Under the pieces are notes generated by a model that saw nothing but the letters and a program-made list of their open reading frames with translations, ran no database searches and was not told the DNA's origin. Below, piece after piece: positions 5,769 through 61,176 of a stretch of 64,000 bases of DNA (the first letter of the stretch is position 1; the number at the start of each line of letters is the position of its first letter). This DNA comes from Alphaproteobacteria bacterium. GTDB lineage: Bacteria > Pseudomonadota > Alphaproteobacteria > Bin95. The stretch spans positions 4,416,001 to 4,480,000 of the forward strand of contig CBDBGH010000003.1 of the NCBI GenBank assembly GCA_965205265.1, written 5' to 3'. Made by a program: the position numbers and the translations under genes.

Positions 5769-5869
5769 GCATCCCTCCTTCCGGCCTCGTCCCGCCCGAT
5801 TAGACGCCCCGCGCCGCCCGACGGTCAAGACGGAACGGTCCGGATTGCGTTGACCGGCCGCGACATCCC

Positions 5870-6420
5870 CGGCGCGTCATGTTTCGTCATGCGGCGCCAT
5901 GAGCCTTCCTGGCGATGTGTCATGAAATGTCATGATCCGCATACCGAGGGTTTATATGCCGTAGCCGAATTGGGCATGAAGCCGTCCATTCGGGCAGGGG
6001 TTCCGGGTATTCCATCCGTGTTCCCGGACCTGGTGTTTTCGGCATGTGCCCTTCCTTTCGTTCCGTCTTCGCTCGTTCTGCCCGCCGCCGCGCCGAACGC
6101 GGCGAACACTGCGGATGGCGGCGTTGGCGCCGCCTTGGGCTCGCCGCGTAGCGGGACCCTGTTTCGCGCGTAATCCCGCGCGCGCCTGCGCCCGTGGGCG
6201 CGTGTTACGCGGCGGCGCGGTTCGTGCGCCTGATTGCGCGCGCGAGGCGGCGGACGCACCTTTCCCGTCGACTTCTCGGGTATTTTTTCGCGCCGGTGCG
6301 AAACGGCTCCCAGGACGCCGTTTCATTTCCTGCAAGGTACTGTAGCACAAGATCTGCGAAAATCAATTCATATCCAAGAATTATTACAAATAATTCATGA
6401 ACAATATGCTGGTGACAAAT
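5870..6420 (-). repeat. short copy of the element at ~58480-59740 (promoter, conserved leader, RBS, small ORF, phased CATGAC repeats)
   Basis: The reverse complement of 6200-6250 matches 58649-58701 at 48/51 plus a 2-nt indel. The promoter, GAACG-rich RBS region and CATGACATTTCATGACA end are also shared. Confidence 0.75.
6087..6134 (+). repeat. 48-bp dispersed repeat, copy 1
   Basis: 43/48 identical to the reverse complement of 24682-24729. Confidence 0.85.
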
Positions 6421-6425
6421 CTACG

Positions 6426-8009
6426 CTACGGCGCGGGGAGCAGCACGCCGGGGTTCATGATGCCGGCGGGGTCGAGCGCGGCCTTGGCGCCCTTGAGCGC
6501 GGCGGCGAAGATGTCGGAGCGCTGGCGGGTGTACCAGGGCATGTGGTCCCGCCCGACGGCGTGGTGGTGGGTGATGGTGCCGCCGGCGTCGATGATCGCG
6601 TCCGAAACCGCGTTCTTGACCGTGTCGTATTGGGCCGAAAGCCGGCCCTGCTCGCCGAGGCCGATAAAGGTGAAATAGGGCGCCGGCCCGTCGGGATAGA
6701 CATGGGTGAAACGGCAGGCGACGATTCCCGGACGCCCCGTCGCCTCCTGGAGCGCGCGCGCCGCCGCGCCCCCCACCTCGCGGTGGAAGTCCTCGAACCG
6801 GTCCCAGGTGATCGCAGTCTCGAAGGTCTCGCGGATGATGGCGCGCGCGGTCAGCATCTCGCGCATGTGCCCGCCCTTGATGAAGGCGTCGCGCCAGCGC
6901 GCGGCCGCGTTCCCGCCGCCGCCTCTCTCTTCCGGCAACCGGCCGCCATGGTCCCGGCAGCATTCGAGCGCGCGCGCCATCCAGGCGTCGAGCGCATGGT
7001 CGGCGCTCTCGAAACCCAGCACCAGCACCGCGGCCGAGCCGTCTCCGGCGCCCGACCAGCGCACCTCGTTATGATCCAGCAGGCGCAGATTGGCGGGATA
7101 GAGCCCGGCCTGGGAGATGGCGCGCACGGCCTCCGCCCCGTCCATGAAACGCGCGAACTCGACCGAGTGGCCGGCGCGGAAGCCCGGGCGGTCCTGCAGG
7201 CGCATCCAGGCCTCGGTGACGATGCCGAGTGCGCCCTCGGAGCCGAGGAAGAGCCGGTCGGGGCTCGGGCCCGCGCCGGAGCCGGGCAGGCGGAAGCTGT
7301 CGTGAACGCCCGCCGGCGTCACGGCGCGCACGCTCTCCGTCATGTCGTCGATATGGGTGAGCCCGGTGGCGTAGTGGCCGGCGCCGCGGGTCGCGATCCA
7401 GCCGCCCAGCGTCGAATATTCGAAGCTCTGCGGGTAGTAGCGGAGCGTCAGGCCGTGAGGCCGGAGCTGTTCTTCGAGGTGGGGACCGTACACGCCCGCC
7501 TGTATGCGCGCGGCGCGCGAGGTGCGGTCGATTTCCAGCACCTTGTCCATGGCGCCCATGTCGATGGAGACCGCGCCCTTGAAGCCGCCGCCGACTTGCG
7601 GATGCACCCCGCCCACCACGGAGGAGCCGCCGCCGAAGGGAATGGCCGCCGCGCCCGCCTCCGCGCACCAGTCGAGCAGCGCCGCAACCTCGCCCTCGTC
7701 GCGCGGGCGGGCCACCAGGTCCGGCGCGCCGGCGAAGTCGCGGTCCATGATGCGGACCTGCTCGTGGAACGAACGCCCGAAGGTGTGCACCAGGCGCTCC
7801 CACTTGTCGTCCGTGGTGACGGGCGCAAGCGAGGAAGGCGGCGCCAGGCGCGGCGGGGCGATCTCGATCTCGTCCACGGTCGGGAACGGCCGGGCCTCGA
7901 AGCCGTCAACCCCGAACACCGCGGCATAGTCCGCCTCGAAGGGCTTCATCTCCTCGTCGGTAAAGCCCTCGCCGACCTTGCCCCAACCCCAGAATTTCCG
8001 CCGCGCCAT
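6426..8009 (-). CDS. FAD-binding oxidoreductase (alkyl-DHAP synthase/GlcD-like)
   Basis: PFGGGSSVVGG, YPQSFEYSTLGGWIATR, GSEGALG, GGTITHHHAVG, LDPAGIMNPG; ATG 8009. Confidence 0.85.
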   Translation of the reverse strand: MARRKFWGWGKVGEGFTDEEMKPFEADYAAVFGVDGFEARPFPTVDEIEIAPPRLAPPSSLAPVTTDDKWERLVHTFGRSFHEQVRIMDRDFAGAPDLVARPRDEGEVAALLDWCAEAGAAAIPFGGGSSVVGGVHPQVGGGFKGAVSIDMGAMDKVLEIDRTSRAARIQAGVYGPHLEEQLRPHGLTLRYYPQSFEYSTLGGWIATRGAGHYATGLTHIDDMTESVRAVTPAGVHDSFRLPGSGAGPSPDRLFLGSEGALGIVTEAWMRLQDRPGFRAGHSVEFARFMDGAEAVRAISQAGLYPANLRLLDHNEVRWSGAGDGSAAVLVLGFESADHALDAWMARALECCRDHGGRLPEERGGGGNAAARWRDAFIKGGHMREMLTARAIIRETFETAITWDRFEDFHREVGGAAARALQEATGRPGIVACRFTHVYPDGPAPYFTFIGLGEQGRLSAQYDTVKNAVSDAIIDAGGTITHHHAVGRDHMPWYTRQRSDIFAAALKGAKAALDPAGIMNPGVLLPAP

Positions 8010-22215: not shown

Positions 22216-25841
<3,626 letters not shown>

Positions 25842-58415: not shown

Positions 58416-58523
58416 CCCGGCTGGCGCGCCGGCTATGGACCGGACGAGACATGCGAATCCGGCGGCCGGCCGGTATGAAACATGGATTGTTCGAAATAAT
58501 CGAGTAATATTTCTCTATAAGGA

Positions 58524-58550
58524 TTGCATTCTCAGAAAGTGTGCTATTAT
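58524..58550 (+). promoter_or_regulatory. candidate sigma70 promoter of the TerS-like element
   Basis: TTGCAT then extended -10 TGcTATTAT in an AT-rich patch (spacer only 15 nt); counterpart TTGATT-N16-TACAGT with TG extension on the minus strand at ~6339-6366. Confidence 0.5.
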
Positions 58551-58804
58551 GGGCCCGAGGGAAGCGGCGTCCATGGACCGCGTCCCGCCCGCGCCGGCCC
58601 GGTGCGGAGCGACCCCGATTCAGCCGACAGGCGAAGTGCGTCCTGTGCCCGCCTCGCGCGCGGGCAATCAGGCGCGCGAACCGCGCCGCCGCGAAACGCG
58701 CCCGCCCGCGCACAGGCGCCCGCGCAGGATACGCGCGGTAAAGGGTCGCTCCCTGCCGGGCGGTGCGCCGAACGAACGCGAACCGGAACGAAGGAGCCGC
58801 ACCC

Positions 58805-59731
58805 ATGCCCGTGCTCGACCCGACCCTCTCCCTCTCCTCCCGACAGGAAGCCTTCTGCCGCCACTACACAGCCTCCGGCAATGCCGCAGACGCCGCAAGG
58901 CGCGCCGGCTATGCCGAACGCTCCGCAAGGCAGACCGGCTCCGCCCTGCTGGAACGCCCCTGGATCGTGGAGCGGGTGCGGCGCATCCGCATGTCGTGGC
59001 GGCGCACCGAGCGGGACGAGGCGCAGATCGTGCTCGCCCGTCTGGAGCAGGCCTGGGATGCGGCGGTCGCCAGCGGGTCCGCCTACATGATGGTCCGGAT
59101 CGTCCGCTTCCAGGCGGAGATTGCGGGGCTGACGCAGCCCGCCAACCGGGCGGCGCTCTGGTCGATGCCGGAGGAGGACGAGTTCGGCGAGATCGAGGCC
59201 GGCGAGGCGCAGGAGGCCGGCACCGTGCCGGGACCCCTGGCCGAGGCCGTGCGCCACGGCCGTGCCCGCGCCGAACGCGCCCTTGCCCGCCATTGCGGGA
59301 ACAGGGAGGCGATGGAGGCAGGGGAAGGCTTCGACGGGGCCGCCCATGCGCAGGTTGCCGCAAGGCTCACGGCGGCCGTCGAGGAGCGCGAGAGCCTGCC
59401 CGTCCGCTTCGACCCGCCGCCGCCCGCACCGGCCAACGACCTTCCCCTCGCTGACGACCCGCCCGAAGACACCTACGACCCGGAGCGGTTCCCCGGCGAG
59501 TGGGCCGACGGCGACCGCCCGGGCGAGGAGGAACGCGCCGAGGGCGCGGAAACCGACTGGCTCTACCAGCGCCGCAACGACTATGCCGAGATCCACGACC
59601 CCTGGTCGCCGGAAAACATCGAACGCCGCCAGGCCGACAGCCTCAACCGGCTCGAGAATGGGCCGCCCCCTTCGACCCGCCCCGCAACCCCGGTCTCGCA
59701 CCCGACCATGACATTTCATGACATCCCATGA
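58805..59731 (+). CDS. terminase small subunit-like HTH protein with acidic/Pro-rich tail
   Basis: LSSRQEAFCRHY..SGNAADAARRAGYAERSARQTGSALL matches the TerS N-terminal HTH pattern; RBS AAGGAG. Confidence 0.7.
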   Translation: MPVLDPTLSLSSRQEAFCRHYTASGNAADAARRAGYAERSARQTGSALLERPWIVERVRRIRMSWRRTERDEAQIVLARLEQAWDAAVASGSAYMMVRIVRFQAEIAGLTQPANRAALWSMPEEDEFGEIEAGEAQEAGTVPGPLAEAVRHGRARAERALARHCGNREAMEAGEGFDGAAHAQVAARLTAAVEERESLPVRFDPPPPAPANDLPLADDPPEDTYDPERFPGEWADGDRPGEEERAEGAETDWLYQRRNDYAEIHDPWSPENIERRQADSLNRLENGPPPSTRPATPVSHPTMTFHDIP

Positions 59732-59733
59732 CA
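59707..59733 (+). repeat. 3 x CATGACA direct repeats with 10-bp period
   Basis: catgacattt catgacatcc catgaca at 59707, 59717 and 59727. Confidence 0.8.
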
Positions 59734-59808
59734 CGCTGCAAACTCCCGGCGTCCGGGGTGGCGAAAAGGAGGGCGCATGATTCCACAGGCATCGGGAGGG
59801 GATGCGGC

Positions 59809-61176
59809 ATGAACGGCATGCGGGAGCTGTTGGACGAGACGGTCCGGCGCGCGGCGCGGTTTCTGGAATCGCTGCCGGAACGCCCCGTGGCTGCGGCGCG
59901 CGGCGCGGGCGAATTGGCGGCGGCGTTGGGCGGCGCGCTGCCGGAAAAGGGGCTGCCGGCTTCCGAAATTCTCTCCCGGCTCGACGAGACCGGCGGGCAG
60001 GGAACGGTTGCAAGCGCGGGCCCGCGCTATTTCGGCTTCGTAACCGGCGGCGTCCTGCCGGCCCCGCTGGCCGCCAACTGGCTCGCAGCCGCATGGGACC
60101 AGAACGCCTTCAGCGAAGCGAGCTCACCGCTCGGCGCCGCGGTCGAGCGTGTCGCGGCGCGGTGGCTGCTCGAAGCGCTCGACCTGCCGGCGGATGCGGG
60201 GACCGCGTTCGTCACCGGGGCGACGATGGCGAACTTCGCCGCGCTCGCCGCCGACCGCCGCGCCGTGCTGCTCGCGCACGGCCATGACGTGGACCGGCAC
60301 GGGCTCCACGGCGCTCCGGAGGTCGCCGTCGCGGTGGGCGAGCAGGCGCACGCCACGCTGTTCAAGGCGCTGGGCATGCTCGGGCTCGGGCGCGACCGGG
60401 TGGTCCGGGTGCCCGTGGACGGCGAGGGCCGCATGCGCGTGGAGGCGCTGCCCGACCTGGACGGCCCGGCGATCGTCTGCGCGCAGGCGGGCAATGTGAA
60501 CACAGGCGCGTTCGACCCGGTGGGCGCGATTTGCGAGGCGGTGCGCGCCGAGGATGTCCGGGTGCATGTGGACGGCGCCTTCGGCCTCTGGGCAAGAGCG
60601 TCGCCCGAGTTCGCGGCGCTGACGCAGGGCATCGAGCGCGCCGACTCCTGGGCGGCCGATGCCCACAAATGGCTCAACGTGCCCTATGACAGCGGCCTCG
60701 CCATCGTGCGCGACGCCGGCGCGCTCAGCGGCGCGATGTCGGTGCAGGCGGACTATCTGCCCGACCCGGAGAACCGGGAGCCGTTCGAATTCACGCCCGA
60801 GACCAGCCGGCGCATGCGCGGGGTCGAGGTCTGGGCGGCGCTGGCGTCGCTCGGCCGCGACGGGCTGGCGGCGCTGGTCGAGCGCAACTGCCGCCAGGCG
60901 CGGCGCTTTGCGGCCGGGCTGCGGGACGCCGGCTTCGAAATCCTCAACGACGTGGCGCTGAACCAGGTGCTCGTTGCATTCGGCGACGACCGGACGACCG
61001 AACGGGTGATTCGCGGCGTGCAGCGCGACGGGACCTGCTGGTGCGGGGGGACCCGGTGGAACGGCCGCGCCGCCATGCGCATCAGCGTCTCGTCATGGGC
61101 GACCGCCGACGATGACGTGGAGCGGAGCCTCGACGCCATCGTCCGGGTGGCAAACGAGGTCCGGGGAAAGGCGTGA
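59809..61176 (+). CDS. PLP-dependent decarboxylase (group II)
   Basis: GPRYFGFV, GNVNTGAFD, HVDGAFG, DAHKWLNVPYD. Confidence 0.9.
   Translation: MNGMRELLDETVRRAARFLESLPERPVAAARGAGELAAALGGALPEKGLPASEILSRLDETGGQGTVASAGPRYFGFVTGGVLPAPLAANWLAAAWDQNAFSEASSPLGAAVERVAARWLLEALDLPADAGTAFVTGATMANFAALAADRRAVLLAHGHDVDRHGLHGAPEVAVAVGEQAHATLFKALGMLGLGRDRVVRVPVDGEGRMRVEALPDLDGPAIVCAQAGNVNTGAFDPVGAICEAVRAEDVRVHVDGAFGLWARASPEFAALTQGIERADSWAADAHKWLNVPYDSGLAIVRDAGALSGAMSVQADYLPDPENREPFEFTPETSRRMRGVEVWAALASLGRDGLAALVERNCRQARRFAAGLRDAGFEILNDVALNQVLVAFGDDRTTERVIRGVQRDGTCWCGGTRWNGRAAMRISVSSWATADDDVERSLDAIVRVANEVRGKA

Follow-up and report, generated by a model that had tools for sequence, protein, structure and literature searches.

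Phage satellites of the SaPI/PICI type (Staphylococcus aureus pathogenicity islands and phage-inducible chromosomal islands) span ~10-15 kb and encode their own small terminase subunit (TerS) together with an integrase and replication and regulatory modules, while insertion sequence (IS) elements have miniature non-autonomous derivatives, namely MITEs (miniature inverted-repeat transposable elements) and mobile insertion cassettes. Pneumococcal BOX elements and enterobacterial bacterial interspersed mosaic elements (BIMEs) are short, modular, transcribed intergenic repeats which occur in many copies and lack protein genes. For the small terminases themselves, PMC4737164 describes an SPP1 packaging (pac) site in which direct repeats form three sets where the TerS gene begins, an SF6 ring in which adjacent helix-turn-helix (HTH) motifs lie about one B-DNA turn apart and around which pac DNA is proposed to wrap, and an SF6 DNA-binding domain which alone binds DNA weakly and without sequence preference. 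Here we describe a TerS-like gene in a 64,000-nt window (the whole stretch of DNA analysed; contig CBDBGH010000003.1, positions 4,416,001 to 4,480,000) of the alphaproteobacterial assembly GCA_965205265.1. The gene lies within one member (copy A) of a modular, dispersed element family with 74 copies in the 5.7-Mb genome, to which a gene-less miniature in the same window (copy B) also belongs. We propose, at a probability of about 0.45, that the family is selfish and amplifying, and that the phased arrays of short direct repeats found in its members are bound by its TerS-derived protein.

The TerS-like gene and its element

The features of copy A are the following:

58435-59754 (+): element copy A (E71), TerS-type, ~1.3 kb, flanked by the stop of the histidine kinase and the start of the decarboxylase
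58486-58550 (+): AT-rich left module with a TTGTTC motif and a promoter-like pair, read directly
58559-58586 (+): 5′ hairpin H1 of the leader, with compensatory changes in the alignment
58603-58750 (+): conserved leader core, the region used as nhmmer family query
58805-59731 (+): TerS-like gene, 308 aa, with an HTH and long helices (residues 12-106) and an acidic C-terminal half
59707-59733 (+): right-end array of three CATGACA units at 10-bp spacing, read directly

Similarity to the paralogues begins at ~58455-58486 on the left and stops at ~59736-59754 on the right, placing the element edges with a precision of roughly ±20 nt. Profile matches identify the neighbouring genes as a histidine kinase (HATPase_c, HAMP) and a pyridoxal phosphate-dependent decarboxylase (Pyridoxal_deC), as given in a preliminary description made from the sequence. 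The AT-rich promoter of that description can be read by eye as a -35-like TTGCAT (58524-58529), a 15-nt spacer and an extended -10-like TG-n-TATTAT (58542-58550), but is absent from the output of a strict promoter scan (spacer 16-18 nt), which missed it because of its 15-nt spacer, likewise did not list the pair of copy B, and reported no intrinsic terminator in either copy. The ATG of the TerS-like open reading frame (ORF) is preceded by AAGGAG at 58791-58796, with an alternative GTG start at 58763. At its other end the three phased CATGACA units (59707-59713, 59717-59723 and 59727-59733) overlap the stop codon exactly as previously stated, with the TGA at 59729-59731 lying inside the third unit, and the 10-nt spacing of the units places a TGA in all three reading frames. 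As a separate observation, the ATG in the third unit (59728) overlaps the stop as ATGA and is in frame with the decarboxylase ORF (59728-61176), of which the likely own start is at 59809; this overlap may be due to chance or reflect translational coupling.

Profile and fold both show that the TerS-like protein begins with a true DNA-binding domain of the SPP1/SF6 small-terminase type, and the TerS-type HTH assignment made earlier is therefore upheld. Pfam Terminase_2 matches residues 11-85 (e-value: 4.1e-13), covering only positions 2-73 of the 141-position profile, and a match is likewise found to PHROG 51 (terminase small subunit; 5.5e-14). An AlphaFold2 model, built from a 36-row alignment (mean predicted local distance difference test score: 69.9), contains confident helices at residues 12-106, with long helices at residues 52-106 resembling the small-terminase oligomerisation core, and further helices at residues 144-196 and 241-285, the remainder being of low confidence; the acidic C-terminal half is thus modelled as helices and disorder. 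The best Foldseek matches of this model in the PDB are to SF6/SPP1-like small terminase, namely the isolated SF6 DNA-binding domain (4zc3; template modelling score normalised to target: 0.82; root-mean-square deviation: 0.8 Å; 40% identity) and, through a weak alignment, a full-length small terminase (3zqq; e-value: 0.013), with no match reaching an e-value of 0.001. NCBIfam and PADLOC searches of the protein returned nothing meaningful, and prediction of a four-chain complex of residues 1-112 scored 0.15 against a mark of 0.42, which speaks neither for nor against a complex.

The similarity to the SPP1/SF6 small terminase G1P comprises the HTH domain followed by long helices, as well as direct repeats in or beside the gene (PMC4737164). 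In contrast to G1P, the protein is 308 aa long, compared to 134-196 aa in the viral relatives checked (usually ~130-200 aa), fits only the first half of the profile, carries an acidic C-terminal half of its own and is encoded by seven genes per genome inside a dispersed repeat, with no adjacent or resident large terminase (TerL). Relatives on viral contigs share similarity only with residues ~8-89, a single one of 47 loci extending to residue 165 at 26% identity. Four of them were checked and encode Terminase_2 proteins matching profile positions 1-103 to 1-138, with a TerL gene of the Terminase_3, 6N/6C or GpA type directly following in all four, while a tblastn search of the TerS-like protein against 50,697 phage records yielded no match. 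Profile searches of the assembly (5.70 Mb, main contig 5.46 Mb, 98.98% complete) furthermore gave no match for Terminase_6N, TerL_ATPase, Terminase_3 or GpA_ATPase and none for the HK97-type Phage_capsid, the portal being represented by one 32.6-bit fragment below the cut-off on the 43-kb contig C2. No TerL gene adjoins the TerS-like ORF, and none of the 58 tyrosine-recombinase (Phage_integrase) matches of the genome falls in the window. The gene is an orphan, as had been claimed, and the lack of capsid and TerL genes, with a portal limited to a sub-threshold fragment, is also unlike a gene transfer agent. The tyrosine recombinases elsewhere in the genome often occur in adjacent pairs or trios (e.g., C3:3493536-3495915 and C3:5156922-5161824) and are candidates for the enzyme that might cut and join the element DNA.

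A dispersed and insertion-polymorphic family

A blastn search followed by two nhmmer rounds with the leader core identified 74 matches in the assembly, copy A included, all of which are located on the 5.46-Mb chromosome contig; two pairs among them sit in duplicated segments. The family makes up ~1% of the genome (about 50 kb). Its members share a plan which, from left to right, comprises an AT-rich stretch, often with TGTTC, a promoter-like pair, a GC-rich leader of ~250 nt that opens with a hairpin, a ribosome-binding site with the start codon, a body that varies between copies and a right end of CATGAC(A) units; CATGA-type units are carried by both ends in direct orientation. By looser criteria the promoter-like pair is present in 51 of the 74 copies (spacer of 15 nt in 39 and 16 nt in 12; TG in 44), and a 10-bp CATGAC pair follows within 2.5 kb downstream in 64 of the 74. 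Genome-wide, 136 CATGAC-N4-CATGAC pairs were counted against ~2 expected (~70-fold), and these fall in 84 array loci, of which 73 have a leader on their own strand no more than 3 kb upstream. The spacing of consecutive CATGAC units peaks at 10 nt (136/340), 21 nt and 33 nt. The second copy in the window has the following parts:

5844-6429 (-): element copy B (E70), a miniature of 586 nt, with 5 nt at the same site in genome G007
6339-6366 (-): promoter-like pair TTGATT, 16-nt spacer, TG-n-TACAGT, read directly
6153-6291 (-): leader core, by similarity to copy A and nhmmer
5920-6045 (-): mini-ORF of 41 codons ending in the array
5876-5934 (-): right-end arrays, CATGACA ×2 (5934-5918) and CATGAC ×2 (5891-5876)

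The leader of copy A (58622-58747) is 78.7% identical to that of copy B (6273-6155) over 127 nt (e-value: 1.9e-22), and the repeats of copy A (59704-59723) and copy B (5937-5918) agree at 19 of 20 positions. The recurrence of the non-coding parts 52 kb away, as reported in the preliminary description, is consequently real, on the minus strand, whereas the view of a minimal gene-plus-site unit with a single additional site is replaced by that of a 74-copy, insertion-polymorphic family in which most members lack the gene. A ~52-nt hairpin-type segment within the copy B leader (6134-6083, minus strand) belongs to another repeat family, which also occurs at 24682-24735 and forms tandem arrays elsewhere in the genome (e.g., C3:3131877-3132018 and C3:2531442-2531617).

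All seven Terminase_2 matches of the genome lie in elements of this family, six of them in TerS-type copies (~300 aa) picked by script (E32, E37, E41, E46, E71 and E72) and one, at C3:2069807, added by the Pfam search. Nine further copies encode an unrelated acidic protein of 195-206 aa (198-aa type), which belongs to no Pfam, NCBIfam or PADLOC family and has 165 homologues, all unnamed. Copies with internal deletions retain both ends and derive from the TerS type (E44, E48 and E64) as well as the 198-aa type (E13, E31 and E60). Most of the remaining copies are miniatures of ~0.5 kb with ORFs of 28-45 codons ending in the array. Across copies, one ~60-nt DNA segment, translated in three different frames, supplies the tails of these mini-ORFs, so that the conservation resides in the nucleic acid and not in a peptide, and the mini-ORF of copy B is likewise probably not a conserved peptide. 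By crude gene calls, the copies examined all lie between genes and show no orientation bias relative to genes within 400 nt downstream (32 opposite, 25 same).

A master copy with its own transposase was considered for the long intervals in E50, E62, E16/17 and E43 and the orphan right end at C3:4158864, which instead resemble secondary IS insertions. In this genome (G000), an IS interrupts or adjoins no fewer than five elements or orphan right ends (C3:2709300-2713700, 3850900-3856400, 689000-695600, 2141100-2146200 and 4157800-4158920). The IS110 type was confirmed by profile among the interrupting insertions, others of which we take, from their N-termini, to be of the IS21 and IS1634 types. 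In genome G012, four IS110 copies are found within ~2 kb of TerS-type elements, suggestive of targeting or of tolerated insertion.

Comparison of the element sites with those of related genomes points to insertion. Nine loci were fetched for the copy A site, four of which had one flank only and were left out; in the other five, 46-140 nt separate the kinase stop from the decarboxylase start, compared to 1,391 nt here. At the copy B site, G007 has 5 nt in place of the 586 nt, while G005 has an unrelated 144 nt, and the sites of a third copy (E35) are empty in G015, G003 and G013. The nearest relative, G014, has copies A and B filled at the same sites. As related species have 5-140 nt where the elements are found, the sequence comparison indicates that the elements are insertions, with junctions that are not base-exact, the species with empty sites being diverged.

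Among the TerS-like paralogues and four homologues of other genomes, dN/dS (ratio of non-synonymous to synonymous substitution rates; Nei-Gojobori script) ranges from 0.16 to 0.42, excluding the near-identical pair E32/E37, which has only eight differences; E71 and E72 are separated by 16 synonymous and no non-synonymous changes. Across the 31 genus-level sequences of the alignment, conservation extends from one end of the protein to the other, and 30 of them terminate in His-Asp, two residues for which the array provides the codons. Paralogues within the genome are 93-96% identical, and at most 80% identical to the copies of other species. The gene is hence under purifying selection and, with seven intact paralogues, not a decaying remnant.

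Within the family, conservation is highest in the leader core, which is nearly invariant and contains long runs without change. H1 is the only helix of the leader with compensatory changes, where both sides of four pairs have changed in an alignment of 37 sequences; the consensus fold is otherwise weak, with a covariation term of -0.69 kcal/mol and double changes in four of 23 pairs, all in H1. RNAalifold on 63 leaders similarly gave a poor consensus, and single-sequence folds share only recurring local hairpins. Against Rfam 15, copy A has no match at e-values up to 5 and copy B only chance-level matches far below the gathering scores. In metatranscriptome X20 (contigs), the leader-to-flank depth ratio is ~50-70, compared to ~75-110 in X1, and such similar ratios fit copy number and are therefore not a sign of expression.

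In the genus, Terminase_2 genes occur in 12 of 17 genomes (2-12 copies each), and these twelve, together with G014, contain 136-379 array pairs each; G014 is fragmented, with TerS-type DNA at a contig end. Only 0-2 array pairs are found in G001, G003 and G013, all without a TerS-like gene. This co-occurrence of gene and array is suggestive, being a pattern and not a statistical test. Beyond the genus, 346 proteins match the TerS-like query at an e-value of 0.001 or better; among the 120 matches listed, query coverage is 86-100%, and one cluster bears the source name 'terminase small subunit'. Homologues at 49-62% identity are encoded by other metagenome-assembled alphaproteobacteria (the sister clade), and several record titles of related alphaproteobacteria name sponge-derived bins. 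At least two phased (A/C)TGAC units are present at the stop codon of 36 of 43 complete homologous ORFs, compared to ~1% of control windows, and of 11 of the 17 complete ORFs at or below 62% identity. The expectation that the flanks recur with homologues elsewhere accordingly held for the phased repeats. Five sister-clade genomes searched contain 15-40 triple arrays each, compared to 0 in controls, and some sister-clade arrays lie in short promoter-to-array units without the gene. The sister-clade homologues read have a promoter-like region near the start codon and no long leader, and it would appear from these loci that the long leader occurs in this genus alone and that the pairing of gene and array is older.

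The stretch from promoter to start codon contains GAAC-N7-GAAC with an AT-rich spacer in 11 of 20 sister-clade loci (L060, L061, L062, L065, L067, L069, L070, L071, L074, L080 and L082), ~15-60 nt 5′ of the start, and in one more locus with a GC-rich spacer, while it occurs in only three of the 74 copies of this genome, all GC-rich. According to PMC3323433, this is the alphaproteobacterial LexA motif. In the sister clade it was also observed that arrays are often directly followed by a small element with inverted ends holding the complement of the ATGAC unit (L111, L113, L114 and L115), and that successive arrays on one strand are separated by 190-600 nt.

Proposed mechanism and alternative explanations

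In the proposed selfish element, the TerS-derived protein would serve as the element's own site-recognition factor. It would form a ring in which, as in the SF6/SPP1 small terminase, roughly one turn of DNA separates the HTH domains, and this ring would read the phased array at the element end, while the conserved acidic C-terminal half would recruit an enzyme encoded outside the element to carry out the cutting and joining. The gene-less miniatures, retaining the cis parts, would rely on the coding copies. An array phased at one helical turn suits such a ring, from which we infer that the TerS-like protein binds the arrays. Like IS elements and MITEs, the family has many intergenic copies that are polymorphic for insertion and highly homogeneous within the genome, with an ORF reaching into the terminal repeat and short derivatives in which both ends are preserved. 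Differences are that neither the TerS-like nor the 198-aa protein has a transposase domain and that the right end is a one-sided direct-repeat array, with a conserved promoter-like region and leader. The SaPI/PICI satellites likewise have a TerS homologue outside a phage genome which could redirect packaging to its own site; these elements are, however, only 0.5-1.4 kb in size, at ~70 copies per genome, and copy A consists of one ORF without an integrase or a replication, regulatory or helper-sensing module, and no helper was identified. With BOX and BIME the family shares a modular build from reusable segments, an intergenic location and many copies, but it is longer, and the presence of its repeats varies together with that of a conserved protein family. 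A literature search (titles and abstract openings) for a multicopy or domesticated TerS element retrieved nothing relevant, and the family is apparently an undescribed multicopy element around a TerS-derived protein and phased arrays.

Several observations weigh against a selfish element of this kind. Pfam, NCBIfam, PADLOC, the model and Foldseek reveal no transposase, recombinase or other catalytic domain in the TerS-like protein, reading of the element ends reveals no terminal inverted repeats, no clear target-site duplication is seen at the sites compared between these diverged species, and the left boundaries vary between subfamilies. A transposase acting in trans fits poorly by co-occurrence, with Y1 found in one and Y2 in three of the 17 genus genomes, and IS110 in 14 of the 17, including the array-free G003. 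Since the isolated SF6 domain binds DNA weakly and has no sequence preference (PMC4737164), a specific reading of CATGACA is not a given. Genome G008 contains 38 array pairs yet no TerS-like gene, and the co-occurrence in the genus is only suggestive because its genomes are kin, not independent samples. Finally, transposons do not usually have a conserved promoter of strong appearance, or a leader whose conservation exceeds that of the ends, and these features suggest a function of the transcript.

A more far-reaching form of the proposal, which we consider unlikely, is a new class of mobile element without its own transposase, in which the TerS-derived ring, having read the array, either brings in a nuclease of the host or of a phage, by which the element is copied to further sites, or seeds headful packaging from the ~70-190 chromosomal sites per genome during phage activity. 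In the latter case the whole chromosome would be transducible, and the sister-clade system would be switched on by DNA damage via the LexA box.

Of the alternatives, the packaging role foreseen in the preliminary description, a hijack or an anti-phage decoy, fares best, although it too is unlikely. The arrays would be pac-like sites at which the ring loads a foreign TerL at ~70 chromosomal positions, so that, when a phage or gene-transfer particle is active, host DNA and elements are spread by transduction or the phage motor is diverted or blocked. The DNA-binding domain is truly of the TerS type (Pfam, Foldseek), its nearest viral-contig relatives are full Terminase_2 proteins with TerL next to them in the four of four checked, and the repeats lie in or beside the gene like known pac sites (SPP1; PMC4737164). 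Docking could take place on the conserved acidic C-terminal half, and the LexA-type motif in 11 of 20 sister-clade loci would time expression with DNA damage and prophage induction. A resident partner is nevertheless missing: the 98.98%-complete genome contains neither a member of the four TerL families nor an HK97-type capsid gene, and Terminase_6N lies above the cut-off in only two of the 17 genus genomes compared to TerS-like genes in 12. The protein also fits half of the TerS profile at twice the usual length, without a match in the 50,697 phage records or in PADLOC, and packaging leaves the arrival of elements at new intergenic sites unexplained.

The purifying selection along the whole protein, the helical phasing of the arrays, as expected for cooperative binding, and the location of all examined copies between crude gene calls would also agree with a domesticated DNA-binding system, in which a transcription or nucleoid factor acts on arrays kept by the host as dispersed operators. 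A regulator in 2-12 near-identical copies per genome which is absent from 4-5 genus members, with many decayed copies and with sites that are insertion-polymorphic between species and have no orientation bias to their neighbours (32 opposite, 25 same), makes such a system quite unlikely.

The evidence on the leader bears on an RNA-centred element, in which the transcript (promoter, structured leader, with or without a short RNA ending in CAUGAC repeats) would be under selection and the TerS-like and 198-aa genes would be passengers. In the 74 copies no other segment is as conserved as the leader core, the 5′ hairpin of the leader covaries, sister-clade miniatures also consist of a promoter-like region, short segment and array, and two unrelated proteins occupy the same frame. 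We nonetheless regard this explanation as very unlikely, as no Rfam family matches the leader, the consensus fold is weak, with its four double-change pairs (of 23) in one hairpin, the gene-array link persists in the sister clade without the leader, and the metatranscriptome depth ratio is explained by copy number and is not evidence of expression. A decaying prophage remnant with chance repeats, to which the truncation or internal deletion of several copies might point, is scarcely credible, being contradicted by the seven intact paralogues with dN/dS well below 1, the hundreds of full-length homologues, the ~70-fold excess of arrays and the absence of other phage genes (TerL and capsid searches, with the portal only as a sub-threshold fragment).

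Other features of the window and biological significance

The gene 3′ of copy B (5768-4884, minus strand) contains an in-frame TGA (5273-5271) in the context Val-Pro-Val-(TGA)-Pro-Val-Cys, after which the frame stays open for 128 further codons; it may be a selenoprotein gene, and neither half matches Pfam at 1e-5. Short direct repeats of 72-84% identity occur ~1.1-1.3 kb apart as the pairs 45743-45806/47015-47078, 62355-62399/63476-63520 and 62752-62826/63876-63950, and probably mark tandem paralogous genes.

Should the selfish-element reading hold, a phage packaging protein would have become the recognition factor of a repeat family in uncultured alphaproteobacteria, which would extend the small number of protein types that define mobile elements and would account for the many 'terminase small subunit' genes that automatic annotation assigns to phage-free genomes. 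It would likewise provide a testable protein-DNA pair, consisting of an HTH ring and an array phased at one helical turn. Furthermore, the ~70 promoter-bearing inserts per genome may affect their neighbouring genes.

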